From NCBI GenBank assembly GCA_026707045.1, contig JAPOXO010000031.1:15654-79653 (forward strand): a stretch of DNA of 64,000 nucleotides, in the 5' to 3' direction. This document shows, piece by piece, positions 26,788 through 52,519 of this stretch. A model generated the notes under the pieces. The model saw only the letters and a program-made list of their open reading frames with translations. It made no database searches and had not been told where the DNA came from. The translations under genes were made by a program, and so were the position numbers. The stretch's first letter is position 1, and every line of letters starts with the position of its first letter. Source of the DNA: Gammaproteobacteria bacterium. Its GTDB lineage: Bacteria; Pseudomonadota; Gammaproteobacteria; Pseudomonadales; Azotimanducaceae.

Positions 26788-27321
26788 CTAGTTCTTGTTT
26801 TGGTCGCTTTTCTGTTTTGGTTTAGGGTATATCCGCCGGAAACTGGAGAATTCACTTTCTCCTCTCGAATAAGTGAGGACGATGACGTACGGTAGCCGTC
26901 CAGTTTCTTCGGGCACCACACTATCAACCGGCGGTAGGGGCTCATTCTTACTCTCGCAACGATAAAAATTGCTGTACGAGTCTCTTGAGTCACCGTGTAA
27001 ATAGCTGTCCCAATTGCCATCTGCTTCTTCACATTCCTGAACAGCTAGCTCATACTGCTCTAGCGCTTTCTGTTTTGCTATGTCAGACTGCTCTGCGCGA
27101 TTGACTTTCCCCCTTTCGAATTTCGGAGGAAACACAAACTCGAATTCGTCGTTCCCGTATAGCTCCGGATAAACCAATTGCCGTTCGGGCAGGGACGCGC
27201 AGGATGTCAGTAGCAACGTGGCAGCTATAAGAGCAAGACTTGAGAGTGTGTTCACTGGAGCGCCTATTCGGTATGGCGCAATTAGCTCAGATCGTTGTTT
27301 TGGTGATTGAATTTCGGTCAT
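26788..27321 (-). CDS. small lipoprotein, paralogue family member (unknown function)
   Basis: Lipobox LLLTSC. It shares the blocks YRIGA, QLxYPEL, QEC..G.W, RC, LPY and FxRIYP with 27646-28161 and 45608-46063. Confidence 0.6.
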   Translation of the reverse strand: MTEIQSPKQRSELIAPYRIGAPVNTLSSLALIAATLLLTSCASLPERQLVYPELYGNDEFEFVFPPKFERGKVNRAEQSDIAKQKALEQYELAVQECEEADGNWDSYLHGDSRDSYSNFYRCESKNEPLPPVDSVVPEETGRLPYVIVLTYSRGESEFSSFRRIYPKPKQKSDQNKN

Positions 27322-27645: not shown

Positions 27646-28161
27646 CTAGTTCCTTTCCTGAATATCGTGTTGATTTTGGTCCGAATTTGGGTAAATTCGA
27701 GAAAAGTTCACTACCCGTTGGGTCTTGCGAATGAAATCGACAGCTAAGTTGTAAGGTAACAATGAGCTCCGCTTCGATGATTGCTCGCAATCTGACATAG
27801 AGGGTGGGTCGCAATTTCTGCAATGATAGGTCCAGCGATCTGTGAGCGTTGAATGAGAGTGCGCCACTAACACCCATTTGCCACTTTCGTCCGCACACTC
27901 TTGCTTGGCTGTCTTGTACTGTTCTGCGTATTGTCCTAAGGACTCCAGCAGCATTTCACCTGTCTTGAGATCCTCAGGGTATTCAAGACTCAATTTCGGA
28001 GGAAACTCCCACTCAAAATCGACATTCTCCTCTAGTTCGGGATAGTTCAATTGCTTATCGGAAAAGGTAGCGCAAGACGTCAATATCAGTGCGACAGATA
28101 GTAGAACTAGCCCTGCGAGAATATTCATCGCTGCACCAATTCTGTAAAGCACAATAAGCAC
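27646..28161 (-). CDS. small lipoprotein, paralogue family member
   Basis: Lipobox LILTSC. The blocks AKQECADESGKW, LLPY and FSRIYP are shared with the other two copies. Confidence 0.6.
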   Translation of the reverse strand: MLIVLYRIGAAMNILAGLVLLSVALILTSCATFSDKQLNYPELEENVDFEWEFPPKLSLEYPEDLKTGEMLLESLGQYAEQYKTAKQECADESGKWVLVAHSHSTLTDRWTYHCRNCDPPSMSDCEQSSKRSSLLPYNLAVDFIRKTQRVVNFSRIYPNSDQNQHDIQERN

Positions 28162-35967: not shown

Positions 35968-36251
35968 ATAGTTTCCTCTTTTCTTGTTTTTCTACACGAA
36001 GAGCAATAATCCTAACGCTTGAACCAATTGGCAGGTGAACACACTTGCCGGTTGAGCATTGATCCGCCTAGGCCGCGTTAGGATTGCTCGATTAGACAAA
36101 GTTACGGTTTGAAGTTCCTCGGAATATCCTCTAACCAGCCCTAATGCAACGCACAATGTCGGTGTTCTTTGGATCGTGGCCATAATCTTTTTGAAGGTTA
36201 CGCCTGTCTGTACGGCGAAACCACAAGACTAGATCAACGGAGCTAGCCGCA

Positions 36252-37757: not shown

Positions 37758-37930
37758 AGAACCAGGCCTTCAAGGAATCGAATGGGCTTGCTCTGAGTGA
37801 TAGAAAACACCTCTGGAATGATTTGCTTACTCGAAACGACAATATCCACAATCGTCTCCAAGAATGAAGATGCCTGATTGTGACTTGGTTGGTTCGACAT
37901 CGAACTTGCAAGGCAGGATGCATCGATAGA

Positions 37931-38283
37931 TCAGGATCTCAGGAGATTACGTAAATTGCATAAAAGTTCCGGAATCTCAGTTGTAATGACGTCCCAGATG
38001 ATGTCGTCGTCGAGGAAGAGATATGCGTGAGCCAATCGATTTCGTATTCCGATAACCTCTTTCCAGGTAATCGACCGGTGTGCATCCCGCACATCAGTCG
38101 GAATATGCGATGCTGCTTCTCCGATGAGCTCGAGGTTTCGAAGTGTAGCGTCGTAGATGAGTGAATTTGTCGTGAATTCTTCAAAGTCGATTTTTCCGTG
38201 TACGACAGAATTTTTTCCGAGAATTCAATCATGTCACGGGCATAACAACGCCATTCGCGTTGTGCGGAGCCCTGTTCAGACAC
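37931..38283 (-). pseudogene. hepT: HepT (DUF86) RNase toxin, frameshifted
   Basis: The N-terminal part (ARDMIEFSEKILSYTEK) is in one frame. The conserved core (IDFEEFTTNSLIYDATLRNLELIGEAASHIP...ITWKEVIGIRNRLAHAY...) is in the -1 frame with no start of its own. The switch maps to an A5 run (T5 on the plus strand, 38191-38195). Confidence 0.7.
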
Positions 38284-38581
38284 GTATGAGATCCTTGTCT
38301 ACGTAAGGACGAAATTCTTCCCGCAATGCTTTGTCCGTTACCAAATCTACCTGAAGTCCGAGCAGATCTTCAATATAGAACTGTGTACCAAAATATCCTT
38401 TGAATGTCGAGCGGCCTTCGAATTTGACTAGGACATCCAGGTCACTCTCATGTGTGGCTTCGTCACGCGCAAATGATCCAAAAATTGCTAAGTATGCGAC
38501 ACCGTAACGATCCGTTAGGACCTTTTTGTGGGATCGAAGAGCATCGAGAACTTCATCACGAGTCAACGTACTACCTTGCAT
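38276..38581 (-). CDS. mntA: MntA-type minimal nucleotidyltransferase antitoxin
   Basis: 101 aa with the motif GSFARDEATHESDLDVLV. Its stop overlaps the hepT start (GTGTCTGA). Confidence 0.85.
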   Translation of the reverse strand: MQGSTLTRDEVLDALRSHKKVLTDRYGVAYLAIFGSFARDEATHESDLDVLVKFEGRSTFKGYFGTQFYIEDLLGLQVDLVTDKALREEFRPYVDKDLIRV

Positions 38582-38809
38582 GGGTATCTAGAGTTGTTTG
38601 TTGCCATATCTTACATCCAAGAGGCCTAGGCGGTCTATGACTATGTCTTGTACCGAATTCGCTACTCTTTGGATTCAAACTTGCCTTCTGCATTTCATAG
38701 CGTTGGTTGGAATTCTTTCAGTGGTTTCGATGTTCAGAGCGGGGACAGAAGCTTGCTCAAAGCCCAAGCAGCAGCCACGCAACGGCTGAACAATATAAAT
38801 CGACAGAAT

Positions 38810-39247
38810 TTAGCTTGACTTAGGTTCGAGATTGCCAGACTCCGGTGGGCGTGGCAATAGATTGAGAATTTCTACGTTCACCCGATGAGTCAGGAACCTG
38901 AAGAAAATTAACTGAAAAAACAAAAATAACAACAGAATAATGAAGTGCAAAAAGTGAAAGAGAGTCAGCTCTCCCCCAAAATCTATCATCAAGAAAACGC
39001 TTGTCCACACAAGAACGAATAGCGTGACAATTGCAATCACAGCTTGTCGACGCATTTTGATGACCCGACGATCTGCTACAAGTGATTTCTGTGATATCAC
39101 ATAGCCTTCAGGTAATCTACGCGGCAGAAGAGTCGGCAAGTAGGCCGCGACAAACAAACCCACGGCTCCCACTATCGCCAGCAATACATACATTTGTGTA
39201 GGAGCCAAGTCGTAATGCATGTGTGCGGGAACAAAGTCGTATTGCAT
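38810..39247 (-). CDS. three-TM membrane protein (hypothetical)
   Basis: 145 aa. The start lies 3 nt after the stop of the upstream 200-aa ORF (TAATCCATG). The N-terminus has the duplicated motif YDFVPAHM / YDLAPTQM. Confidence 0.55.
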   Translation of the reverse strand: MQYDFVPAHMHYDLAPTQMYVLLAIVGAVGLFVAAYLPTLLPRRLPEGYVISQKSLVADRRVIKMRRQAVIAIVTLFVLVWTSVFLMIDFGGELTLFHFLHFIILLLFLFFQLIFFRFLTHRVNVEILNLLPRPPESGNLEPKSS

Positions 39248-39250
39248 GGA

Positions 39251-39853
39251 TTACTGTTGTGTCTCCGATGCCTGACCGAACTTCTGCTCAAACAGTGCGA
39301 GGCTCGCGCCAAGTTCTCTTTTCACTACTCTTCGTAGCGACCGGCGCATTACTGTTAAGCAGTCGATCAGTTCGTATTGCCAGTCCAAAAACACTGGATT
39401 GAATCGTGTGGAGTATGCCATCCGTCCGTCGTCTATGACCTTTATGCGAGCATCACTGGGTGTGCTGGTCCCGGATTCTGCAGTTCTGAGGTCGATTCGT
39501 CTTTCTTCTGCGAACTTCCCAATCAAAGAATCTGGAACGGGACAATTGAACACACATCGCATTGTGAATTCCGGATGTTCTTGAAGCTTCTTCTCGATAG
39601 CTCCCAGAACCTCGTCGTCCCAGTAGTAGCTGTCGTTAACAGCGTCACCGTCATCGTAAATTACCATCTTGTCTTCAGCTTGGCCGAGCAATAGTAGAAA
39701 GTAGTGCTTTGCGATATCGGTGTTATTCAACCCAATGACCTTTCGTGTTCCCATTGTCCCCAAACTAACTCTGAACATGGTGACAGCGGCCGCCACCATG
39801 AGAATAATCATGATGCAATCCACAACAACGCTGAACACGGGGCTGACGTCCAT
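39251..39853 (-). CDS. N-terminally membrane-anchored protein (hypothetical)
   Basis: 200 aa with one TM helix followed by a soluble domain. No secure motif found. Confidence 0.55.
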   Translation of the reverse strand: MDVSPVFSVVVDCIMIILMVAAAVTMFRVSLGTMGTRKVIGLNNTDIAKHYFLLLLGQAEDKMVIYDDGDAVNDSYYWDDEVLGAIEKKLQEHPEFTMRCVFNCPVPDSLIGKFAEERRIDLRTAESGTSTPSDARIKVIDDGRMAYSTRFNPVFLDWQYELIDCLTVMRRSLRRVVKRELGASLALFEQKFGQASETQQ

Positions 39854-39888
39854 GTTTATCTACAGTTAATGGTCACAGAAATCGAACT

Positions 39889-40590
39889 TTGGGATTTTAT
39901 AGCTTACTTGTGAATGTAGACGAAAGTGAAGCAGATGTGCACATTTTTGCCCCTTCCACATGCCTATATTCTCGCCTAAGTCTTGGAATTACAGGGAACG
40001 CGCTAAACTTGATTAGTTTTCATAAACTTGGTGAATCGACATGTTGTTCACTTCTCGACTTTGTGTTTCGACTCCTTCGACCTTGCTTTTCTCCAACCAA
40101 TCAACGTTCCCTTTATGAAAAGCAACGTGGCGTATGCAACGGTTGTCGAGTATTACTCAAACTGCGTCATTTAGCCATTGATCACATCGTTGCGAGAAAC
40201 CAAGGAGGAACCCACAAATTGAGCAATTTGCAATTGCTTTGTGCTTCCTGCAACTCGGTAAAGGGGAACCGTTCTCAATCCTATTTGACACAGAGGCTCC
40301 AAATTCGAAATTGGATAAGTAGAAGCCCTAACGTTTCAAAGGTAAGTGCTTTGGTTTGGACTGGGTCGCGATGGGTGGACGTGTTTGAGCTGATTCTCTT
40401 CATCGATGATCCCGAATCATGTTTTTCAGGTTCTGTAGAGGGCCCAAAAACCCGTCTCTTTACTAGCGATCATGACTTCCATCGGGCATGGAAGAACATG
40501 CGCGCAGGATTGCGCGGATTGCTTGACCTGCTCGAGTCTAGAGAGGAAGATCGGCGTAAATTAGAGGATGACCGAAGTTGGTCCTTGTAA
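39889..40590 (+). CDS. HNH endonuclease with uncharacterised C-terminal extension
   Basis: HNH core CNGCRVLLKLRHLAIDHIVARNQGGTHKLSNLQLLCASCNSVKGN. The true start is more likely the in-frame TTG at 40009 or GTG at 40063. About 110 aa follow the HNH domain. Confidence 0.8.
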   Translation: MGFYSLLVNVDESEADVHIFAPSTCLYSRLSLGITGNALNLISFHKLGESTCCSLLDFVFRLLRPCFSPTNQRSLYEKQRGVCNGCRVLLKLRHLAIDHIVARNQGGTHKLSNLQLLCASCNSVKGNRSQSYLTQRLQIRNWISRSPNVSKVSALVWTGSRWVDVFELILFIDDPESCFSGSVEGPKTRLFTSDHDFHRAWKNMRAGLRGLLDLLESREEDRRKLEDDRSWSL

Positions 40591-40892
40591 AAACAGGCTA
40601 AAGAAAGAAGTTCAGTCTACGGGGTTCAATATCACTCTAGTGACAAGTGGCCAACATAGGGTCTTATAGCTCCTCCCTCCAAACGGAATCGCAAAGCGTA
40701 GCAAATCACAACGCAGGATGAAATTTCCAAAGAAGATTGCGATTAGTTTGTTCGAATCGACCAGTAAGGTTGCTAAAGATGAAAGCAGTTGTCTGGATAT
40801 GTGTGAGCGGGCTAACTTTGGATTGCGCTTTTCAGTCTAACTAAACGCTACCGCAGACATTCGCCTGCATGCTGTTCAGTTCTAATCGCTTT

Positions 40893-41114
40893 TTAGCTAG
40901 GAAGATGGGTATGTGGCTTCTCAGCAACGACATTCCACTGTTCTTGAACTTCGCGTTTGTGCAAGAGACTGGCTGCCTTGACATGTTCCATCCCAATGAT
41001 CAATCCTCTCAATCGAGGATCGAACTCTTCTGGAGGAAGCGTAATTGTCATTTCATCACAGTCGTTGAAATACGGATTTTCGAGCTCGTTAGAGAATCGG
41101 TATCGAATATTCAC
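40893..41114 (-). CDS. small hypothetical protein (73 aa)
   Basis: GTG start preceded by a strong Shine-Dalgarno sequence (AAGGAG, 9-nt spacing). Confidence 0.4.
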   Translation of the reverse strand: MNIRYRFSNELENPYFNDCDEMTITLPPEEFDPRLRGLIIGMEHVKAASLLHKREVQEQWNVVAEKPHTHLPS

Positions 41115-41345
41115 AGTTGCTAACTCCTTAATATCGAACCAAACTTCGTGCCTGTCTTGAGATGTTAATCACGAATCACGACTCAAAGCACTTAATATTT
41201 GGGACACGCACCGCAAACGAAGGTTCCAATGGCTATGACTCTTCAAGCACTTGGACCATGAAATCAAACATTGAAACGTTGCGGACCAATCTGCAAAAAG
41301 ACCCAGGTTAATTGGCGAAATTCGCGCAAATTTAGGTCCAAGTAA

Positions 41346-42548
41346 ATGCCGAACCAAAACTCACGAGGCGACTCTCTACCCATGAGAACAACCGATGTTC
41401 CATTGCCTAGAATCTTGCTTCTGGCCACCATTTTCCTGCTATCTCTTCCGACATTTGCCTCATTGTTTGAAGATTGTCGTAAAGAAGGCCATTTTGGTCC
41501 GTCCGAAGCCATCGAGGTCACGTGTGACAACTCAAACTTAGCAGACACGCTTCCAATGTGTAGGAAACTGGTGGCTGACATCGAAAGCCAGCCAGAACCC
41601 CTCACAGCTCAACAGCGATACGACCTGATATACGCCCTGTTTCAAATGCGATTTGTGGTCCATGATCCAGAGATAGCGGAAGTATGGGATAGCAAGTTGC
41701 AAAGCACGACTCGGAAACTGCTTGAGGAATATCCCCACGACGTTTCGATCAATGTGCTTGCCGTAGCAAGCGAATTTAGGCGAAGCGACGACGAGAGCTT
41801 CTTGGAGACCGCTCGGTATTTGGTTCATCTTGCGCCTTACTGCAACTCCAATACTTTTTTGCTCTCTTCTCATTTGGAGCGCCTAATCACTAGGAACGAA
41901 GACCGGTCCGCTGAAGAAATCGCTGTATTGGTCGACGAGCGCAACAAGCTCCTTGAGCTCGGCTACCAACATGCAAAGACTAAGGGCGACAAGGTGGAAT
42001 GGGGCGGTAAGCGCTACATGGAATATCTTCGCATAGACGAGGCGGAATTGGCCAGACAATGGCGGAATATGGTGGTGCGAGAAATCAATCCACCTGGTTT
42101 GCTTGTCGATTCGGACAATGTGGAGGACTCGCTACGTCTCATTTGCATCCCGAGAGCACATAGACTTAGGCTCGCCGAGCACTGCCTGCGTACTCTTGAA
42201 CGTGCAATAGAGCATGCGAACTCCAACAATGAGGAAGTCTCCTATTTTGTGCTCATTTTCGCTGAGGAATTGATGTACGGATTTTCCCTGTTTCCGTTTG
42301 AGTGGAGAATGGAACCAATCAGTCCAGAGAGAGGAGTCCCGTCTCCTCTTGCAATAACATGGGAATTCGAAACATACACTCCCAATGACGCAGCCTATAT
42401 TGTCCCTCGACTGCGCGATGTGTTGGAACTAATACCGGAGGAACAGCAGGACGAGAGGTTCTTCGAAGTCTATAGCTTGGTTATTGGTGAGCGCACAAGA
42501 GATCGATGGTTAAAGAAATTTGAAGAGAGAAATGATGGAGACAGCTAG
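41346..42548 (+). CDS. secreted hypothetical protein (400 aa, helical)
   Basis: N-terminal signal-like segment ILLLATIFLLSLPTFASL. No family recognised. Confidence 0.5.
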   Translation: MPNQNSRGDSLPMRTTDVPLPRILLLATIFLLSLPTFASLFEDCRKEGHFGPSEAIEVTCDNSNLADTLPMCRKLVADIESQPEPLTAQQRYDLIYALFQMRFVVHDPEIAEVWDSKLQSTTRKLLEEYPHDVSINVLAVASEFRRSDDESFLETARYLVHLAPYCNSNTFLLSSHLERLITRNEDRSAEEIAVLVDERNKLLELGYQHAKTKGDKVEWGGKRYMEYLRIDEAELARQWRNMVVREINPPGLLVDSDNVEDSLRLICIPRAHRLRLAEHCLRTLERAIEHANSNNEEVSYFVLIFAEELMYGFSLFPFEWRMEPISPERGVPSPLAITWEFETYTPNDAAYIVPRLRDVLELIPEEQQDERFFEVYSLVIGERTRDRWLKKFEERNDGDS

Positions 42549-42695: not shown

Positions 42696-43901
42696 TCACT
42701 CGTTGCTCTCCGATATTTCCCTGTTAGGATTGGGAATCAAAGGTTCGTTCGAATCCCGTTTGGTCCTCACCTCTTCGATAGCCTTTTCGATGTTTTCCAA
42801 GCGTGCATCGCTGGCATGGTGCTTTTGCGCCGCATCCGATTCTGAGGGTAGACGATCCCAGACTAGCAATGCTTCGTCAAGATCTACGCCGGCCCGTGCG
42901 AGTAAGTATGTCGACACATAGTCGGCCTCCATTTCGTGTCCGGCAGTTGCGACCCAGGATCCGATCTTACTTCCTGCGGCTGCTCCACCTTTGATGAGGG
43001 CGACTGATCCCTCCATCAATCCTTCAGCCGCTTCCGACTCACCGGCAATGCCAGAAAAGATGGTGCCGATGATGGCTACGGGAAGGACAACCGCAGCAGT
43101 TGCGACACCTCCGACAACTCCCCCTGCAATAGACCCGCTTGCGTCCTTCGTGCCGTGTCCCCCGATGAAGTGTCCCAACTGATGCGCAACAAGTGCTTGA
43201 AGTTCCGCATCAGACTGAGTAAAGTCGCAAAGTCCTCTGGATAAATAGATCGTTCCTCCATCGGATGCCAAAAACTTGCCGGCATCTTCTGTGACTATAA
43301 CACGAACATTGCAGCGCTTCTGAGGCTGAAGCGTGGCAACAATGTCCACTCCTCCTCGTCGATAAGTTAGCCGGACTGGATTACCCTCTTCATTTGCCAG
43401 TGCAAGGATCTCGGTCAAATATCGACGGTATGGGCGAACTCCCATGACGTGGGATTGCAGCCTCGTTTGCAAGGGGTCTTCCTTGATGGATACGTCATTG
43501 ACAGCAAGGAGCAAGTCGTTCCGACGCAATCCCGCCCTATCAGCGGCAGATCCCTTTTCGACGTAGAGAATAGACGGAATCTCTCCTACATTCACAGCGG
43601 GTCCGACATCTTTACGGACTTCGATTGGGAGATCATTAATGGTGAGCCATTCGAGTCCTAGACTGTAAACGGTTCTCTCTTTGCAAAGTTCCGCGTTCAT
43701 AACAAGAATGGGAGAAGCCAGAGTTGCGACGTGTCCCTGCATGGAGCTTGAATCTTCAAAAAAGGCTACAGAATCCTGTACTTGCTGTGGAGTAAGAGGT
43801 GTGGGAGGCATCCAAGTATTACTCATCATGCAACCACTAAGGGCGGCAAACGAGGAAATGCATATACCTAACTGAAGGAAACTCGACATTCTTGAAACCA
43901 A
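42696..43901 (-). CDS. PDZ-domain M48-like lipoprotein with HQxxH (predicted catalytically inactive paralogue)
   Basis: Lipobox ALSGC, PDZ block GSAADRAGLRRNDLLLAVNDVSI and zinc-site AHQLGHFIGGH (Q codon CAG at 43179-43181). A Gly-zipper hydrophobic insert and the third-ligand region GHEMEADYVSTYLLARAG are also present. Confidence 0.75.
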   Translation of the reverse strand: MVSRMSSFLQLGICISSFAALSGCMMSNTWMPPTPLTPQQVQDSVAFFEDSSSMQGHVATLASPILVMNAELCKERTVYSLGLEWLTINDLPIEVRKDVGPAVNVGEIPSILYVEKGSAADRAGLRRNDLLLAVNDVSIKEDPLQTRLQSHVMGVRPYRRYLTEILALANEEGNPVRLTYRRGGVDIVATLQPQKRCNVRVIVTEDAGKFLASDGGTIYLSRGLCDFTQSDAELQALVAHQLGHFIGGHGTKDASGSIAGGVVGGVATAAVVLPVAIIGTIFSGIAGESEAAEGLMEGSVALIKGGAAAGSKIGSWVATAGHEMEADYVSTYLLARAGVDLDEALLVWDRLPSESDAAQKHHASDARLENIEKAIEEVRTKRDSNEPLIPNPNREISESNE

Positions 43902-44051
43902 ATCATAGATTTCTGATAGTGAAAATTGTATCGGTTTTTAAAGTAATCGAATGAGCGTGTTAAGGACCCGATCAGCCCCGAGAATACATCCCTTTCAACT
44001 TTAACAGGTGCTTCTAATGTCGAACCATAAACTCCCAACGAAGCATTCTGC

Positions 44052-45251
44052 TCAATTTTGGCGCTTGCTCTTCGAAACTTTCCTGTTGGAATTGGGGATC
44101 AAACGTTCGTTCGAATCGCGTTTGGCACTGACCTCTTCAATTGAGTTATTGATGTTTTGCAGACGCTCATTGCTTGTACGGTGTTTTTTGGCAATTTCCG
44201 ATTCTGTGGGCAGGCGATTCCAGACTAGCAACGCGTCTTCTATATCGACTCCGGCGCGAGCAAGCAGATAAGTGGATAGGTAATCTGCTTCCTTTTCCTG
44301 TCCGGAAGTCGAGATCCATGATCCGATACCGATTCCAGCGGCTACACCACCTGTTAGAAGCACTGCCGAGGCTTTCGTAATCTCTCCCCCTGTATCGGGT
44401 TCGCCTTCAAAGATCGAATTGACAGTATCCGCAATGGCTATGGTCGAGATTGCGCCAAGAGCCACTAGGCCGCCTACGACTCCTCCAACAACGCTTCCCG
44501 TCGCGCTTTTCGTTCCGTGGCCGGCAATGAAGTGTCCCAATTCATGCGCGATAAGAGCTTGAAGCTCTTCATCCGACTGAGCAAACTCGTAGAGTCCTCT
44601 GGACAGGTAGATGGTGCCTCCCCTTGAATACAACGCCAAGCCGGTATCTTCTACAACACTAACTTGCACGTTGCAGCGTTCTTGAGGTCGAAACTCCACA
44701 ACATCGTTTATTCCTTCCCGTCGAAGACTGAGTCGTACAGGGGTACGCTCCCGATTGGTCCGAGCAATAATCTCAGTCAAATACCTACGATATGGGCGAA
44801 CTTTCCTCCCGTTCGAATCTTGCCCAGTCTGCAAGGGATCTGACTTGATCGAAACATCATTCACGGCTAGAAGTAAGTCGCCCCGGCGCAATCCCGCCTT
44901 TTCGGCGGCCGATCCTGTTTCCACGTAAAGAATCGAGGGAATCTCTCCCAAGCCCAGAGCGGGACCAACATCTCTCCGATGCTCGATGGGTAGATCATTG
45001 ATGGTTACCCAGCCAATTCCAAGACTGTATACGGTTCTCTCTTCACAAAGATCTTCATTCGCAATCAGAATGGGTGAAGCCAGTGACGCTGCATGTTTCT
45101 GCGCAAATCTCGAATCTTCAAACGACCGAACCGATTCCTGCAACTGTTGCGGAGTCAGAGCTACAGGTGGCAGAAGGTCGCTGTTCATGACACACCCGGT
45201 CAGAATCGCCAACGACAACAAGCAGAGTCCAGGTGGCAGGTAATTCGACAT
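44052..45251 (-). CDS. PDZ-domain M48-family zinc metallopeptidase lipoprotein
   Basis: Lipobox ILTGC, a PDZ block, intact AHELGHFIAGH (44532-44546) and GQEKEADYLSTYLLARAG. It is a tandem paralogue of 42696-43901. Confidence 0.8.
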   Translation of the reverse strand: MSNYLPPGLCLLSLAILTGCVMNSDLLPPVALTPQQLQESVRSFEDSRFAQKHAASLASPILIANEDLCEERTVYSLGIGWVTINDLPIEHRRDVGPALGLGEIPSILYVETGSAAEKAGLRRGDLLLAVNDVSIKSDPLQTGQDSNGRKVRPYRRYLTEIIARTNRERTPVRLSLRREGINDVVEFRPQERCNVQVSVVEDTGLALYSRGGTIYLSRGLYEFAQSDEELQALIAHELGHFIAGHGTKSATGSVVGGVVGGLVALGAISTIAIADTVNSIFEGEPDTGGEITKASAVLLTGGVAAGIGIGSWISTSGQEKEADYLSTYLLARAGVDIEDALLVWNRLPTESEIAKKHRTSNERLQNINNSIEEVSAKRDSNERLIPNSNRKVSKSKRQN

Positions 45252-45607
45252 CCCTTCGAGGAGCTATTGAAAGTCGTGTTCATGGTACTGAATACTCTGG
45301 CAAGACTAAACAGGGATCATCGGTTTCGAGGGTCCTTCACAGCGGGAAGTGGTGGGTAGCAATTTCGGCTTTGGAGTGCACTTTCAACGACCTGTAAATG
45401 ACGTATGTCAGAGAGATCTTGATGAGGAACAAAAGACCACGCGTACGCTGAGGATCTGACATTGCAATTGGGGCTCGATAGACTGAAGCCAGGCCAAGAG
45501 TTAAGGCAATCGAAGCATTTGTACTTATGCTGAAAACCGAAGACCGTGTATAGAATTTATTGCCGAGATGGGCATCCACTCACAGTCGCATCGCGTGAGA
45601 TTGAGTC

Positions 45608-46063
45608 GTGCGCAGACAAAGTACACACATCGAAAACAGTTTACAAGCAAGCCTCACCATATTCACTGCGACGATGCTGATTCCAGCTTGCACGATCCTA
45701 TCCGAATCCGAACAACTGTCGGATTTACCAGTACAAACAGAAAGTGCCGAATCGCAATTGGATCACGAAGCTGAATATGAAAAAGCCAAACAGGAATGCG
45801 CTGATGCTGGAGGGCAATGGGTTTGGTATATGCATGGTGATGGGCCTGAGTTCTATACCTATTCCATGCGTTGCTGGGACAAGGATGATCCCCCACGTAA
45901 ACCGGGTAGTCCGCGTTGGAAGGAGCCCGCTCTATTGCCCTACGAGGTGTATGTTGTTCACTCTCGAGCAACCAATAGGGTAATTGAGTTTTCTCGGGTT
46001 GATTCAGACTCCAAGGAGGAACCCAAAGACGGCGTTAAAGATGTTCAAAATCCAACCGAGTAG
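45608..46063 (+). CDS. small lipoprotein, third member of the 26788/27646 family
   Basis: Lipobox-like MLIPAC and the shared blocks AKQECADAGGQW, RC, LLPY and FSRV. Confidence 0.55.
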   Translation: MRRQSTHIENSLQASLTIFTATMLIPACTILSESEQLSDLPVQTESAESQLDHEAEYEKAKQECADAGGQWVWYMHGDGPEFYTYSMRCWDKDDPPRKPGSPRWKEPALLPYEVYVVHSRATNRVIEFSRVDSDSKEEPKDGVKDVQNPTE

Positions 46064-46384: not shown

Positions 46385-47077
46385 TTGGTTGAATCAATTG
46401 TGAGTAGTGAAAATCGCAACCGCCGCAGCTCGAAATTTCAGGGCTTAGCGCACTGGTTTGGGCTAGCTGTTGCGATTGTTCTAATTGGTTCGTTCGGCAC
46501 ATATTATTTCTGGCCAAATGGGGACACGCCGGTCGGCGAGTCCCTAGAACCAGACAAACAGTTAGATGACTCAGTTACCAAAGAGACTCCTGAGCAACAG
46601 TTTCCACCTCGAAAGTTGCGTCAGGCTTGGTACAAGACAAGCGGGAAGGATGCGAAACTGATTGAACGACCGCAAGATCTGCCGGGCGACTCTAGCTATG
46701 TCACACTAACAGGAGAGTATGATCAATGGTTGCTTGGTACTCCAGTCGAGATTGCTATACCTCAAATCGGGAAACGGTATCGTTCAGTCGTCGATCGAAT
46801 TGCCCCTGATGAATTCGGAAACGTGACCATTCACGCCAAGCCCGATGCAGACGAAGAGGAGTTTCTGCGCCTGATCCTGACTTTCAATAGTGCGCAGACA
46901 CTTGCTTATGTTTCGACTACTTCAGGAAGCTATGAACTGACTGGCACGGAGACAGGAGGATGGATTACATCGACAAGCAGTCTCCAAAAGAAAAGAGACT
47001 ACTCGCTTAAGGACGTGTTGGAAACGCAACGCGATCGTCACGCCAACACCAAATACGTGCCTCCAAGAGAGGATTGA
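46385..47077 (+). CDS. membrane-anchored hypothetical protein
   Basis: 230 aa with one N-terminal TM helix (WFGLAVAIVLIGSFGTYYFW). It ends 66 nt upstream of the giant exoprotein gene. Confidence 0.5.
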   Translation: MVESIVSSENRNRRSSKFQGLAHWFGLAVAIVLIGSFGTYYFWPNGDTPVGESLEPDKQLDDSVTKETPEQQFPPRKLRQAWYKTSGKDAKLIERPQDLPGDSSYVTLTGEYDQWLLGTPVEIAIPQIGKRYRSVVDRIAPDEFGNVTIHAKPDADEEEFLRLILTFNSAQTLAYVSTTSGSYELTGTETGGWITSTSSLQKKRDYSLKDVLETQRDRHANTKYVPPRED

Positions 47078-47143
47078 GTTTCCTGCCGCTGTGGAACATG
47101 TTTCGGTGAGAGTTTTTAGCAATTTGTGAGAGGAGTTGGGTTC

Positions 47144-50100
47144 ATGCAGAACATTATTCGCTGCTTTTTCGTCGGAATCTTTGGATTCGCCACGTTTGCA
47201 CTGAACGCCCAGCTTGAATGGGCACGCGTGGGCATCGTTTGCCCATGTACTCTTGAAAGCGAAGATGGCGCAACCGCGACTGTCCAATTCGGTCTTCAAA
47301 ATTACGAGGACTACCCCACCGAAAACCTGTGGGCCACGATCGCTGTGACGGGTTATTTCGACGACGAGGAATTCAGCGAGGAGGAATCGTTGTTTCTCGG
47401 AACAGCCCCCTTGAACTTTGGCTTGTCTGAACTCGAAGAGGTAGCTTCCAACAGCTATGAGATCGAATTTGGTCAATTGCCCGCTGGACGAGTCTATCTC
47501 GAGTTGATGATTCATGAGGGCCGGAGACCCACATTTGCTTCGCTCTTGGATACAGTTTGGTTCGAAGGTGAGACGGAAATGCCATTTGCGTCTCTCTCCA
47601 AACGTGATATGGATTTCCTGAGAGATACCGATGGGGATGGGATAGGCGATGTAAACGAGGAATTCATGAATACGGATCCTAGCGACCCAGAGGACTTTCC
47701 GAGCAAACCGGAGATAGATGTCCTGGTCGCCTACGAATCGGGGATACAGTCAGTGTTGCCGGGCGATGATACCGCTCAACAAATCAGCCACATTTTTGCA
47801 GTGACCAATTTCTTGTTCGAAAGGAGCGGATCTCCCCTCAGCTTTCGACTGGTCGGTACATTGGACGAGACTGAGGTACCTGAAATCGAAAACGGGAATT
47901 TCTTCCTGCCGGAAGAGTTGAGAGACCAGTATCAAGAGCAATACGGCGCTGACTTGATTGTGGTGTTTCATCCAGGCTCAACCGGTCTCTGCGGCATTGC
48001 GGAGGATATCGGAGGATGGCGTGGACGAGGGTTCATTCACCCCTTGAATCGAGCAATCTTGACGCACGTGTGGTTGAACCCCTCGATTTGCCCGATTAAT
48101 GTCACGGCCCATGAAATCGGACATCTTGTGGGGTTGGGTCATTCCTATGTTCAAGGCTCGGTCGGTACCTACTATTGGTCTCGAGGTCACGGTGAACATG
48201 ACGAGTTCGGCACCGTGATGTCGTATGCGGAATCCGCCTACAACGGAATTGACATCGACAAGTTCTCCAATCCCGAAGAGGACTGCAACGGTAAGCCGTG
48301 TGGAGTTTCGCACGAGCTGACTAACCACGAGAGGAGCTCGGATTCGGCATTGACGGTAAACGTTACCAAGTATCAGGTTGCATTAACGGGGAGTCCTCCT
48401 TCCGATCTTGACGTCGACGGCGATGGTTTTGCCGCTGATACCGATGTCTTTCCGCTTGATTCGACCGAGTGGTTAGATTCGGACGGAGACGGTCATGGTG
48501 ATAACGGAGACCAGTTTCCCAGTCTTGCGTCCGAATGGGCAGACACCGATGGAGACGGAATTGGTGACAACTCGGATCCCGACATTGACGACGACGGAGT
48601 CCTCAACCAAGATGATGCTGATCCGTTCAATTCCGAGGTTTCCACGGTGAGGATTCTTAATGTCGTGAGCGGACACATCAACGATGGGTGGGGCACGGAG
48701 ATTCTGCTCACCGGCGATTGGGACAACGACGGGCTGGACGACATAGCAATCTCTGCTCCTGAAATCACAAACGACGACCGGGAGGGAGTGGGAGCGGTGT
48801 ACTTGTTGTCCACGGACGGACTCACACAGGAACCGCTCGATGGCGAACTTCAGGACAGCCGACGCGAGATTGGTCATCTGATTGCCGAGGATCATGCGTG
48901 GGCCATCCACGGCATGGATGAAATTGGCGAAATTGGTAGGCACATGGCGTTCCTTTCCGTACCTGCAGAATCAGGAACCAGTGGCTACCTCTTGCTTTCG
49001 TCAGAGCGAAGTTTGTACATGATTCAACTGGACGACGCGACGTTGAACTCATTCGATTCACTGGACGGCGTAGAAGATCGACATCTCCATCTCGAGTACT
49101 GTCCTGAGAGCCTCGGTTGCTTGTTTGCAGGAGAGAACGAGAATTTCGAAGTGGAGGGAATTGTCGCGATGCGGGACCGCGACAACGACGGAACCTCCGA
49201 TTTTGCCGTTCTGGGCACTAGCCAAGACCCCTTCGAGGTCAACTTGTACCTACTTACACACGCCGCGCTAGTTACATTCGAGCCTGAATCGGAGGCAGAC
49301 GATGGAGCATTCGATCAATTCGTCTCGGAGTTTGACACGACCTTCCGCTTACATGCAGTTTTTTATCCACAGAACCTAAGCTTGACAAACTTGGGCAACT
49401 TGACGGGATTGGAAGCAGATGAATTGGGGATAGGACTGGAGCGTGCTCCAGGGGGCTCCGACGGCGTTGTCTATATCGTCAATACAGATGTTGTTTTTCT
49501 AACCGACGTAAATGATGGTTCAACCGACGGAGAAGTTCACCTAGACGACTTGCCCAGTGTGGACAGTGGTTCGTACAAAATCACTATGCCCGGAACGTCT
49601 TCGTTTGGTCGTTCGCTTAGTTCAATGGCTGATTCAGACGATGACGACCGACCCGAAGTCTTGATGTGGAGCCGGTTTGAACCTCATGTTTTGCTTACTT
49701 CCGAAGGACTTGAAAACTTGGACGAGCGAGACGGCACGACTGACGGAATAATTTCGATTGTCGACTCTTCGTTCGAATACTCCGGAGTTTGGTACTTCTA
49801 CGACGTCCAAGCTAGAAGCGAGGCGTCTCAAACCGTCCTGAACTCGACATTCGACAAGCCAAGCAGCCACATTCTCGCTCAGTACAGCAGGGGTTTACTT
49901 GTGGTCGAGGTGGACGATCTTGGAGAAATGGACGATCCCAATCCCAATCAGCGCGATGGACAAATCAGTTTCCAATCTCTATTGGGCCGACCTGGTGTAT
50001 TTCGGCTACAAATACCTCGGGATCTCAGACCAGGTACAAGTCTCAGCGGCATTTCTCCCCTAGGCGATCTTGACGACGACGGAGTGCTCGACTTCGTGTT

Positions 50101-52519
50101 TGCGGCCGAATCACAACGAGCGGACAGGCAGTCGACAAGTGCTGTTAATGTCATGTTTTCCTCCTCGTTCTCGACGATCGACCGAGCCGACGGTGAAGAG
50201 GACGGAATTCTGCGGCTGCACAACAATCTGAACGACACCGATGGCGACGGAATTGCGAATTTGCACGATTTGGACGACGACAATGACGGTGCGATCGACC
50301 AGTACGACCTTTATCCTCTTCATAGCAATGCGATTTACGATGCGGACGGAGACGGAACGGCGAACGTTATTGATGCGTTTCCCGATGATTCTGGTGTAGA
50401 TTCCGACCTAGATGGAGACGGAATAGGGGATCGACGTGACTCCGATACGGACGGAGACGGCATCGAAGACTTTGAGGACCAGTTTCCATTTGACACGGAT
50501 AACGACGGATTGGACAACTACGAAGACTTGGACGACGACAACGATGGGTTGGAAGACGAATTCGATGCCTTTCCTCTCGATTCCAACGAGCAATACGACA
50601 CGGATGGAGATGGATATGGTGACAATGTCGATCTTTTTGCCGACGATGAGAACGAGTGGCAGGACTCGGACCTCGATGGTATTGGAGACAACGGGGACCT
50701 AGACGACGACAACGACGGTTACGAAGACGACATAGATTATTTTCCCTTCAATCCGGATGAATGGTTGGACTCCGATGGCGACGGAATTGGAGACAATGCC
50801 GATCAGTTTCCGAACAATCCGTTTGAATGGGAGGACCAAGACAATGACGGACTTGGCGACAATCTAGGGTCCGCGGGAATCGCCATCCACCGAATCGAGT
50901 CGGACTGGGTGGCGTTCAGTTTTTTCTTTGGTATCCAAGCTGCTTCGGCACACAATCTTTGGGACTATGACTCAACGGGTGGTCCAAAGTTACTCATCCA
51001 AGGTGGTAGCCCCAATGATCCGAGAGGTGCCCTGCATCTGCTTTCAAGCACAGACTTGGGTCAGCTCGATGCGGTCGATCAACAAACGAATCAAACTATC
51101 CAGATTGGGGAAATTGCAGACGGTGCCCAAAGCTGGGAATTCCGTGGGCCACGTTCTTCTGACGTACTCTACGAGAACTATGGTGCTGTGACCGATGTAG
51201 ACGGAGACACGATCGGCGATTTGATTATCGGAAGCCCCTACGAGGAGAATGGACACGGAGCCATCTTCGTAGTCTACGGAAACCAACTTGTGGATGCAGA
51301 TTCCATCGATGGAACATTAGATGGGAGGATCAACCATACACAGTGTTCATTTCCCGGCACTTGTGCCGCGGTCTTCAATTCGAGTGAAAGTTACTTTGGA
51401 AGCAGCGCAACATCTTTAAATGGATTTTTTGGCGAGAACACATCGGTTTTAGCCATCACGAACTACTTTACCACCCAAAGGCCGGAAGGAGACTCGGAGG
51501 GCAGACCCTTAGTTCACCTATTGTCCAATACAGCCATATTGAATGAAGTAGAAGATTTGCAAAACGGCGATCTTGAACTGAATCGACTGCAAGAAAGGGA
51601 TGGTACCTACCAGATCTACTCCGAGTCTGATGAAGATTTTGCGTCTCCTTTTGCCGCCACAGTGCATCAAGTAATCGACTACGACAACGACGAAGCGGAA
51701 GACTTGATCGTTGCACTTCCTTTCAATGACGCAACCTATTTCCTAGCGTCGAGCGATATCGTGCAGGCGGATTCGGACGATGGAGAAGACGATGGACTGA
51801 TTGACGTGTTGAACATCGTGAAAAGGCCTAATAGCTACAGACTCGATGGTTTCACTCCCACGCTGTCATCTACCCGGACAACGTCGTGGGGAAGTAGTTC
51901 TAGTGGGGCTCATTATGTGCCGGTGACTGGTGGTGGTGAACACTATCTGCTGGACGTATCGGAACTCGAAAAACATATGGACTCGGGCGACGACGCGGAC
52001 GAAGAAGCGGACGGCATCATCACGGGAATCAAAACAGCGGACACCAACTCATGGATGCTTCAAGGTTTATCCGATCTCGAGGTATGCAACAGCGGCACTG
52101 ATCATCCCGACACCCGTGTCGTTGGATATTCGAACGCATTCGACGGACAAAGTTTCTACTTGTTCACATTGGACCAAATGCGTGACTGGCAAGAAGAATC
52201 AGGCGTCTCGACCAATTTTGTGGATGTAACCGAGGCGTTTTCAAGTGGTACTTCGGGAATTTGGTCCATTGGTCTCGGCGGTCTCAACGACGACCTGGAT
52301 AGCTTTCAGGTTTCGTGTGTGGGTGATTGGGACGGCGATGGTGAAGAGGATCTAACTGTGTCGATAGTGCAGGCTCGCTTCAGCTTTATCGAATCTAGAG
52401 CGAAGGCAACGGTATTCCTAATTATGACAGGAGATTTGCCGGCATTAGACGGTATTGACGGTACAGTGGACAATGAAGTTGATCTCTCACTACTTTGGAG
52501 GAAAGCGACAGACGAATAG
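47144..52519 (+). CDS. giant secreted metzincin-type zinc protease / TSP3-repeat / FG-GAP-repeat protein
   Basis: The ATG at 47144 is preceded by GAGGAG (the track ORF starts at a GTG at 47126), and the signal peptide ends ALNA-Q. HEIGHLVGLGH lies at 48110-48142, followed by the Met-turn VMSY. Two clusters of thrombospondin type-3 Ca-binding repeats (DxDGDGxGDxxD) are present. FG-GAP/integrin-alpha-like segments occur (GDWDNDGLDDIAISAP...GAVYLL; DVDGDTIGDLIIGSP...GAIFVVYG). Confidence 0.85.
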   Translation: MQNIIRCFFVGIFGFATFALNAQLEWARVGIVCPCTLESEDGATATVQFGLQNYEDYPTENLWATIAVTGYFDDEEFSEEESLFLGTAPLNFGLSELEEVASNSYEIEFGQLPAGRVYLELMIHEGRRPTFASLLDTVWFEGETEMPFASLSKRDMDFLRDTDGDGIGDVNEEFMNTDPSDPEDFPSKPEIDVLVAYESGIQSVLPGDDTAQQISHIFAVTNFLFERSGSPLSFRLVGTLDETEVPEIENGNFFLPEELRDQYQEQYGADLIVVFHPGSTGLCGIAEDIGGWRGRGFIHPLNRAILTHVWLNPSICPINVTAHEIGHLVGLGHSYVQGSVGTYYWSRGHGEHDEFGTVMSYAESAYNGIDIDKFSNPEEDCNGKPCGVSHELTNHERSSDSALTVNVTKYQVALTGSPPSDLDVDGDGFAADTDVFPLDSTEWLDSDGDGHGDNGDQFPSLASEWADTDGDGIGDNSDPDIDDDGVLNQDDADPFNSEVSTVRILNVVSGHINDGWGTEILLTGDWDNDGLDDIAISAPEITNDDREGVGAVYLLSTDGLTQEPLDGELQDSRREIGHLIAEDHAWAIHGMDEIGEIGRHMAFLSVPAESGTSGYLLLSSERSLYMIQLDDATLNSFDSLDGVEDRHLHLEYCPESLGCLFAGENENFEVEGIVAMRDRDNDGTSDFAVLGTSQDPFEVNLYLLTHAALVTFEPESEADDGAFDQFVSEFDTTFRLHAVFYPQNLSLTNLGNLTGLEADELGIGLERAPGGSDGVVYIVNTDVVFLTDVNDGSTDGEVHLDDLPSVDSGSYKITMPGTSSFGRSLSSMADSDDDDRPEVLMWSRFEPHVLLTSEGLENLDERDGTTDGIISIVDSSFEYSGVWYFYDVQARSEASQTVLNSTFDKPSSHILAQYSRGLLVVEVDDLGEMDDPNPNQRDGQISFQSLLGRPGVFRLQIPRDLRPGTSLSGISPLGDLDDDGVLDFVFAAESQRADRQSTSAVNVMFSSSFSTIDRADGEEDGILRLHNNLNDTDGDGIANLHDLDDDNDGAIDQYDLYPLHSNAIYDADGDGTANVIDAFPDDSGVDSDLDGDGIGDRRDSDTDGDGIEDFEDQFPFDTDNDGLDNYEDLDDDNDGLEDEFDAFPLDSNEQYDTDGDGYGDNVDLFADDENEWQDSDLDGIGDNGDLDDDNDGYEDDIDYFPFNPDEWLDSDGDGIGDNADQFPNNPFEWEDQDNDGLGDNLGSAGIAIHRIESDWVAFSFFFGIQAASAHNLWDYDSTGGPKLLIQGGSPNDPRGALHLLSSTDLGQLDAVDQQTNQTIQIGEIADGAQSWEFRGPRSSDVLYENYGAVTDVDGDTIGDLIIGSPYEENGHGAIFVVYGNQLVDADSIDGTLDGRINHTQCSFPGTCAAVFNSSESYFGSSATSLNGFFGENTSVLAITNYFTTQRPEGDSEGRPLVHLLSNTAILNEVEDLQNGDLELNRLQERDGTYQIYSESDEDFASPFAATVHQVIDYDNDEAEDLIVALPFNDATYFLASSDIVQADSDDGEDDGLIDVLNIVKRPNSYRLDGFTPTLSSTRTTSWGSSSSGAHYVPVTGGGEHYLLDVSELEKHMDSGDDADEEADGIITGIKTADTNSWMLQGLSDLEVCNSGTDHPDTRVVGYSNAFDGQSFYLFTLDQMRDWQEESGVSTNFVDVTEAFSSGTSGIWSIGLGGLNDDLDSFQVSCVGDWDGDGEEDLTVSIVQARFSFIESRAKATVFLIMTGDLPALDGIDGTVDNEVDLSLLWRKATDE
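48400..48640 (+). repeat. coding TSP3-type Asp-rich repeat cluster 1
   Basis: DVDGDGFAADTD / DSDGDGHGDNGD / DTDGDGIGDNSD / DIDDDGVLNQDD. Confidence 0.7.
50221..50870 (+). repeat. coding TSP3-type Asp-rich repeat cluster 2 (about 14 units)
   Basis: Reiterated D-x-D-G-D-G-[IY]-G-D-N units give a periodic gacggagacgg-type DNA pattern. Confidence 0.7.

Follow-up and report, generated by a model that had tools for sequence, protein, structure and literature searches.

A conserved Glu-to-Gln change in the zinc site of PDZ-M48 lipoproteins from Azotimanducaceae-like bacteria suggests a maintained pseudo-protease family

Results

Tandem PDZ-M48 Lipoprotein Genes

The window analysed here is a 64,000-nucleotide (nt) stretch of contig JAPOXO010000031.1 (assembly GCA_026707045.1, positions 15,654–79,653) from a gammaproteobacterium of the family Azotimanducaceae. 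Two open reading frames (ORFs), referred to below as winQ and winE, lie in tandem on its minus strand at 42696–43901 and 44052–45251, respectively. Their products are 62% identical over 395 amino acids (aa) with 0 gaps, and differ at the general-base position of the HExxH zinc motif: the site codons of winQ read GCG CAT CAG TTG GGA CAC (CAG at 43181–43179), whereas those of winE read GCG CAT GAA TTG GGA CAC (GAA at 44543–44541). An earlier sequence-only reading of this DNA had described two adjacent paralogous PDZ-M48 lipoproteins with Gln and Glu, respectively, in the site, and the ORFs, the identity of the products, the Pfam scores given below and the codons all agree with that description.

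One coordinate of the earlier reading needed correction, the start of winQ, which had been placed at TTG 43901. In 12 out of 12 family genes read at the DNA level, the product begins with the pattern M-x-x-F/Y/L-L..., 19 residues ahead of the lipobox Cys; because of this shared start pattern and spacing, the start of winQ is most likely ATG 43889. The revised gene (42696..43889, minus strand) encodes a 397-aa PDZ-M48-fold lipoprotein with the site H236-Q237-L-G-H240 (43170..43184; Q237 codon CAG at 43179–43181) and is predicted to specify a pseudo-protease. Its paralogue winE (44052..45251, minus strand; 399 aa) has a fully canonical site, composed of H236-E237-L-G-H240 (E237 codon GAA, 44541..44543), E319 and the plug His.

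Both products carry a lipobox with an invariant Cys 19 residues past the start: LSGC in winQ (L17-S18-G19-C20; 43830..43841, minus strand) and, at the same family position, LTGC in winE (L17-T18-G19-C20; 45192..45203, minus strand). The form (L/P/V)(S/T/P)GC is kept in all of the 12 copies read at the DNA level. In Escherichia coli, sorting of lipoproteins depends on the residue at position +2 (the Asp rule). Both products are predicted to be lipidated and, since neither winQ nor winE has an Asp at +2 after the lipobox Cys, to be sorted to the outer membrane, the sorting following from the E. coli rule only. The database gene calls of six relatives (P0001, P0005, P0006, P0008, P0010 and P0011) begin past the lipobox Cys and are 376 instead of 397 aa long, which leaves these public predictions without the signal peptide and hides that the proteins are lipoproteins.

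Four public sequencing runs (X1–X4), all of them sponge metagenomes, were compared with the locus. Contigs of run X1, which possibly derives from the source sample itself, match the whole stretch with 0 differences, and a 367-nt contig of run X4, which stems from a separate study and sample, bridges the winE/winQ junction (43835–44201), also with 0 differences. The Gln and Glu codons are covered by X1 only and lie outside the coverage of X2–X4. A search for RNA runs found none. A recent gene conversion between winE and winQ was considered and rejected, as nucleotide identity peaks at 80% across all 30-codon windows.

Domains, Zinc Site and Structure Model

Pfam analysis assigned both products to Peptidase_M48 (PF01435; 36.0 bits for winQ and 55.2 bits for winE against a cut-off of 20.3) and to PDZ_6 (36.8 and 38.1 bits against a cut-off of 27). 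The PDZ domain of winQ (PDZ_6, 3.3e-09) covers approximately residues 88–187 (43329..43628, minus strand), with the bounds taken from the secondary structure of an AlphaFold2 (AF2) model. Its best Foldseek matches are the PDZ domains of HtrA1, HtrA3 and DegQ (TM-score on the target, 0.64–0.69; E ~2e-4), according to which the modelled domain is HtrA-like.

Profile comparison yielded matches to 3C37 (E-value, 9.4e-25) and to BepA (~1e-19). The E-x-EAD segment had previously been put forward as the third-ligand region; this held, and the alignment to 3C37 and BepA pins the third zinc ligand to the first Glu of E-x-E-A-D, i.e., E319 in the E-x-x-A-D position (42933..42935 in winQ, minus strand), which is present in both proteins. 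H357 of winQ (42819..42821, minus strand) aligns with the 'sHP' motif of 3C37 and corresponds to the M48 'HP' plug histidine (BepA H246). The hydrophobic insert described earlier as a Gly-zipper occupies residues 246–312 of winQ (42954..43154, minus strand), the positional equivalent of the BepA alpha6-lid. In the clade of close relatives described below, the distance from the second His to the third ligand is 79 residues, whereas the wider family has a median of 53; the clade lid contains 21% Gly, and the mean over the members of the most hydrophobic 19-residue window is 2.23 on the Kyte-Doolittle scale (membrane-like). Lids are also the site of strong divergence between winQ and winE (27–53% aa identity in codon windows starting at 241–286). 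The AF2 model of winQ (mean predicted local distance difference test score (pLDDT), 81.5; predicted template modelling score (pTM), 0.79) is confident outside residues 249–310, for which pLDDT is below 50. Among 96 family members Cys193 is invariant and Cys69 near-invariant, a pattern that would fit a periplasmic disulfide.

The HExxH general-base residue is thus present in winE (HELGH) and replaced in winQ (HQLGH). By sequence, winE is a full member of M48, whereas winQ is a member of the fold that falls outside the enzyme class because HQLGH replaces HExxH.

Extent of the Clade and Conservation of the Gln

Querying 5.8 billion proteins with winQ and winE in word-based searches gave only about 17 close relatives, and the clade comprises 19 distinct sequences when copies read from the loci are counted. 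The clade is well supported (100/99) on a long stem and has a narrow distribution, its sequences coming from Azotimanducaceae-like Pseudomonadales metagenome genomes. Of the Genome Taxonomy Database (GTDB) species genomes, only OZ241909.1 (Candidatus Azotimanducaceae) and OZ242357.1 (Pseudomonadales) were found to contain the clade, and GshB of the window is 80–81% identical to GshB of these two genomes. One clade member is labelled 'M48 family metalloprotease' by NCBI.

The earlier reading had suggested checking whether orthologues of winQ carry Gln or Glu. They keep Gln, as do 17 out of the 19 distinct clade sequences, which shows that the Gln is not a strain-specific single-nucleotide polymorphism (SNP). 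In all of the 11 Q-type genes read at the DNA level (the window and loci L001–L006), this Gln is encoded by CAG. At other conserved Gln columns both CAA and CAG occur (82 to 74 overall), unlike at the all-CAG position 237, whose uniformity may reflect nucleotide-level constraint or shared ancestry. The two clade members without Gln are winE (GAA) and P0165 (GAG).

The wider PDZ-M48 family, with 7,765 matches at E-values below 1e-3, mostly retains the canonical motif, HExxH being found in 139 of its 160 top representatives (~87%). Glu-to-Gln changes have also occurred independently in sister lineages of the lid-expanded group, namely in P0016 and P0034 beside the E-type P0014, and in P0024, P0069 and P0080; judged by these sequences, the change is recurrent in the PDZ-M48 family. 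Based on the sequences at hand, Gln is the normal state of a small, maintained family of protease-like lipoproteins in sponge-associated bacteria, and the copy with the intact motif is the exception.

Purifying Selection and Erosion of the Metal Site

The ratio of nonsynonymous to synonymous substitution rates (dN/dS), which the sequence-only reading had named as a check, is 0.11–0.17 between winQ and its three orthologues and 0.10–0.17 among the latter, and thus indicates purifying selection; in the other Q subclades it is 0.2–0.46. Neither frameshifts nor indels were found in the 12 copies read at the DNA level. As had been noted for winQ, the rest of the site is intact: winQ and its orthologues keep H236, H240, E319 and the plug His, with the base alone changed and no decay.

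Another part of the clade, subclade B, erodes the site stepwise, with H240 replaced by Asp, E319 by Asp, Ala, Gln, Lys or His, and the plug His by Leu or Phe, while the ORFs stay intact. This erosion is confined to subclade B. At the sequence level, intact genes with eroding ligands are the mark of a fold retained for a non-catalytic role, and since the ligand-losing Q subclades remain under purifying selection, the conserved function does not appear to need the metal site.

The E-Type Member winE and a Q-to-E Reversal

Phylogenetic analysis placed winE, the winQ group and the rest of the clade in a basal trichotomy. Approximately unbiased (AU) tests (p 0.35 and 0.39; support of the best tree, 74/54) left all three resolutions standing, and the simplest history, with winE basal and a single Glu-to-Gln change, is among those not rejected. 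The Glu of winE may be either ancestral or regained. No orthologue of winE was found in genome contigs (one unrelated 29% match) or in metagenome contigs (no match), and no second fully canonical clade member was detected among the 5.8 billion proteins and 185,579 species genomes searched. The complete catalytic site of winE is unique in the clade, and winE may still have protease activity.

The other E-type sequence, P0165 (L008, 95–1519), reads HELAH (GAG), has His as the third ligand and RQ in place of the downstream GH. It is nested with 100/100 support among Q-type sequences, so at least one Q-to-E reversal has taken place, and P0165 is best described from its sequence as such a reversal in an otherwise eroded site.

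Gene Neighbourhood and a Small Lipoprotein Family

Loci L004 and L005 share synteny with the window; in both, a giant reprolysin-like gene, a gene of ~210 aa and a small gene are followed by a divergent PDZ-M48 gene. The first PDZ-M48 gene of L004 and L005 is the orthologue of winQ; in the window winE occupies this place, with winQ directly behind. Neighbouring paralogues, adjacent or nearby, are all Q-type in L001, L002, L004, and L003 with L010, and the winQ orthologues in L004, L005 and L002 adjoin Q-type genes only. Since these neighbours are all Q-type, the Q proteins function without an E-type partner of the clade, and the proposal that winQ is a pseudo-protease serving its active neighbour did not hold for the family, in which the E copy is the exception.

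A new finding is that a divergently oriented gene for a small lipoprotein (120–181 aa) lies directly upstream of 11 of the 13 assessable clade genes. The two exceptions, winQ and the third copy of L002, each follow another PDZ-M48 gene in tandem. In the window, the small lipoprotein (151 aa; 45608..46063, plus strand) is divergent from winE; its AF2 model shows a helix and a four-stranded sheet, with pLDDT 87–98 (average over residues 51–130). Members of this family have the lipobox LTAAC and, apart from its Cys, two further invariant Cys residues downstream, together with the motifs AEYEKAKQECADEGGEW, HGDG, MRCW and GLLPYD; the protein is probably disulfide-bonded. The family counts 33 members in the 5.8 billion proteins and shares contigs with the clade; it has no Pfam domain and no name, and the model gave no significant match in the Protein Data Bank, only weak matches to NTF2-, SnoaL- and cystatin-like structures (E ≥ 0.076). 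A small-lipoprotein neighbour is not present beside the E-type sister genes P0015 and P0018.

Further copies of the small-lipoprotein gene are found in L001 (5380–5793, 8428–8862), L002 (212–574, 2266–2694, 2806–3252), L003 (7156–7602), L004 (5207–5752, 7285–7653), L005 (9282–9689, 11419–11793, 11944–12387) and L006 (8704–9117, 9227–9670). Strict one-to-one co-phylogeny of the small lipoprotein and PDZ-M48 genes is not claimed, as array members have been lost or gained between L004 and L002. Two distant paralogues of the small lipoprotein (26–37% identity), each with its own lipobox and no adjacent M48 gene, are encoded on the minus strand of the window at 26788–27321 and 27646–28161.

Several other genes are found around the pair. 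The 230-aa product of 46385–47077 is 65–68% identical to genes of L005 and L004 with a precomputed BamI_lipocalin (PF27177) match; a Pfam scan of the window product itself gave nothing at E-values up to 0.01. In conserved synteny, this gene precedes 47126–52519, which encodes a 1797-aa reprolysin-like/FG-GAP/TSP3 protein. Comparison of window positions ~37800–42548 with L003 9543–12566 (OZ242357.1) revealed extra genes in the window between the DUF2779 gene and the PDZ-M48 pair, namely an islet of toxin-antitoxin, membrane-pair and HNH genes, together with a 400-aa gene (41346–42548) without a family match. A third conserved, unannotated family (119–256 aa as called, 70–89% mutual identity) lies downstream of a subclade-B PDZ-M48 gene in L004 (9343–9963), L008 (1838–2458), L006 (12797–13447) and L001 (7370–8140), and upstream of P0006 in L003 (6570–6929); none of its members is found beside the window pair.

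Promoter and Leader Regions

Promoters of the sigma-E/AlgU type have the consensus GGAACTT-N16-TCnAA. A related pattern, GAAC(C/T)(T/A)-N15-GT(C/T)(T/C)A(A/G), is present in six out of seven subclade-B genes and ends 54 nt before the ATG. The form GAACYT-N15-GTCYAA, which we take to resemble RpoE/AlgU-type promoters, is matched exactly in four of these genes and at 10–11 of 12 positions in two more. Four loci contain the exact form a single time each, in every case 54 nt before the ATG (L001 9112–9138, L002 3482–3508, L003 7857–7883 and L006 9920–9946). Upstream of winE, a weak sigma-E-like remnant (GACCCT-N17-GTTTAG, 9/12; 45306..45334, minus strand) also has its -10 element ending 54 nt before the ATG, as in subclade B. 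The sole match of the sigma-E-like pattern in the window, at 36092–36117, is within chance expectation (0.7) and was discarded.

The putative promoter is followed by a conserved leader block, CCAATACCAT, common to nearly all of the paralogues. The 162-nt spacer between winE and winQ (43890..44051, minus strand) holds a diverged copy of this block (CCGATACAAT versus CCAATACCAT), and because winQ keeps its own copy of the family leader region, it is not obviously co-transcribed with winE.

Discussion

Comparison with Known Systems

In E. coli, BepA (YfgC) takes part in envelope quality control and is a member of the sigma-E regulon. It shares with the window proteins the M48 fold (with HExxH, as in winE), the third-ligand Glu in E-x-x-A-D and the plug His (profile E-value, 1e-19), as well as a flexible hydrophobic lid between HExxH and the third ligand, in the same place as the Gly-rich lid of the clade. 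The BepA alpha6-lid (Q154–T197) is flexible and hydrophobic and is reported to insert into the outer membrane (bioRxiv 10.64898/2026.07.01.735768). The protease-dead variant E137Q stabilises the binding of LptD and keeps a partial chaperone-like activity (PMC8423444); it binds substrates without completing their degradation and co-elutes with BamA and LptD, and its clients stall at BAM, the machinery of beta-barrel assembly (bioRxiv 10.64898/2026.07.01.735768). However, BepA is soluble and has C-terminal TPRs and no PDZ domain, whereas the window proteins are predicted lipoproteins with PDZ and no TPR match in Pfam. The score of winE against the BepA family (NCBIfam NF052400) is 16.9 versus a cut-off of 570, and the distance from the second His to the third ligand is ~61 residues in BepA versus 79 in the clade. 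Moreover, the Gln variant of BepA is man-made, while the Gln of the clade is natural and conserved.

LoiP (YggG) and YcaL are outer-membrane M48 lipoproteins of E. coli with a hydrophobic lid (bioRxiv 10.64898/2026.07.01.735768), and LoiP is the best NCBIfam family for the window proteins. The match is weak, NF052399 giving 20.8 and 22.1 where the cut-off is 365, and LoiP and YcaL differ in having no PDZ domain and a canonical HExxH. By analogy, the clade proteins would act like a natural form of BepA E137Q, yet they are neither BepA nor LoiP.

JspA of Sinorhizobium meliloti is an M48 lipoprotein that needs a small lipoprotein partner, the 148-aa LppA (PMC10659215). The pairing of an M48-fold lipoprotein gene with a gene for a 120–181-aa lipoprotein in the clade recalls this system, the parallel being a functional one. 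JspA differs in that it has a LysM domain instead of PDZ, is encoded at a locus tag separate from that of lppA, and is catalytically active, its E148A/D variants being inactive (PMC10659215).

A literature search found no M48 pseudo-protease family. Comparable changes are known from other folds and families: the degenerate LytM factors EnvC and NlpD (M23) are envelope metalloprotease folds that have lost catalytic or metal residues and are kept for binding or activating roles, and mammalian ACE3 (M2) carries a natural Glu-to-Gln change in HExxH (HQxxH).

Interpretation and Alternative Explanations

The reading preferred here, with a probability of roughly 0.7, is that winQ and its Q-type relatives are maintained pseudo-proteases that bind envelope clients without cutting them. 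A catalytic residue is replaced, the replacement is conserved, selection is purifying (dN/dS 0.10–0.46) and the ORFs are intact. As the Gln is kept under purifying selection, these genes are taken to be maintained pseudo-proteases and not decaying ones. Replacement of Glu by Gln in HExxH is the classical dead mutant of zincins, and in the clade this change has been retained. In winQ and its orthologues zinc would probably still be bound and a peptide held in the groove uncut. The lipid anchor and the enlarged, hydrophobic, Gly-rich lid would hold the protein at the membrane, where the PDZ domain and the M48 groove may capture an envelope client that, by analogy with BepA E137Q, would be retained, shielded or presented instead of degraded. 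The divergently encoded small lipoprotein is the best candidate for such a partner or client. In this genome winE and winQ could divide 'cut' and 'hold' between them, which would not be the general mode of the family.

Several points weigh against this explanation. The loss of proteolysis in the Q-type members is deduced from the zincin Glu-to-Gln rule and from BepA. Foldseek searches with the winQ model returned PDZ matches only and none to M48, so the assignment of the M48 fold rests on sequence profiles; the AF2 model leaves the conformation of the lid undefined; and no sigma-E-like promoter was found upstream of winQ or its orthologues.

Among the alternatives, a strain-specific SNP, a sequencing error or a decaying winQ pseudogene can be set aside as practically refuted, given the same CAG in 11 genes across the window and six other contigs, the intact ORFs without indels and the dN/dS of 0.10–0.17. 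It is quite improbable, although somewhat less so, that the HQxxH proteins have remained proteases by relying on another residue or activating water by a different route. All zinc-site residues are retained in the winQ subclade, whose dN/dS is also the lowest, as would be expected of an enzyme; on the other hand, the same change kills BepA (PMC8423444; bioRxiv 10.64898/2026.07.01.735768), and sister Q subclades have lost ligands (the second His to Asp, the third ligand to Ala or Lys) under purifying selection.

A role of winQ as a dedicated regulator, adaptor or hetero-oligomer partner of an active winE is unlikely. The genes stand in tandem with a spacer of 162 nt, the site of winE is complete, the junction was seen in an independent sample (X4), and the strong divergence of the lids (27–53% aa identity) could mean different roles. 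However, the orthologues of winQ in L004, L005 and L002 stand beside Q-type genes only, no other fully canonical clade member was found in the 5.8 billion proteins and 185,579 species genomes (P0165 is without the third-ligand Glu), and winQ has its own diverged leader copy. An interplay of winE and winQ specific to this window is likewise given little weight.

There is a minor but appreciable chance, better than that of a winE adaptor, that winE owes its Glu to a secondary Q-to-E reversal or to neutral flicker at a position that has ceased to matter, and that winE is in practice as non-catalytic as its relatives. Such a reversal has a precedent in P0165 (GAG, 100/100 nesting, third ligand His), and the AU tests cannot put winE outside the Q subclades (p 0.35, 0.39; best tree 74/54). 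But winE, unlike P0165, keeps both His residues, E319 and the plug His, its GAA is two steps from CAG, and a basal winE with one Glu-to-Gln change is not rejected.

More speculatively, the small, probably disulfide-bonded lipoprotein and the PDZ/pseudo-M48 protein might form two-part envelope modules in which the dead groove serves as a high-affinity receptor and a single Gln/Glu codon toggles between 'hold' and 'cut' (winE, P0165). Equally doubtful is the extension of this idea, that the modules form a diversifying array peculiar to sponge-associated Azotimanducaceae-like bacteria, with receptors for the partner or for host or envelope peptides. If true, the system would be a substrate trap that evolved naturally, and not a quality-control protease.

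Significance

For the preferred reading of maintained, non-cutting binding proteins, the consequences concern both annotation and biology. Activity and location of these proteins are mis-stated in public records because of the label 'M48 family metalloprotease' and because the signal peptide is often dropped by gene callers. Stepwise loss of ligands under purifying selection would provide a clean example of the passage from a protease fold to an envelope binding protein, one that parallels the degenerate LytM factors but within M48. Natural, maintained Glu-to-Gln zincins would also be ready-made substrate traps, and pull-downs with them could reveal the targets of PDZ-M48 lipoproteases.

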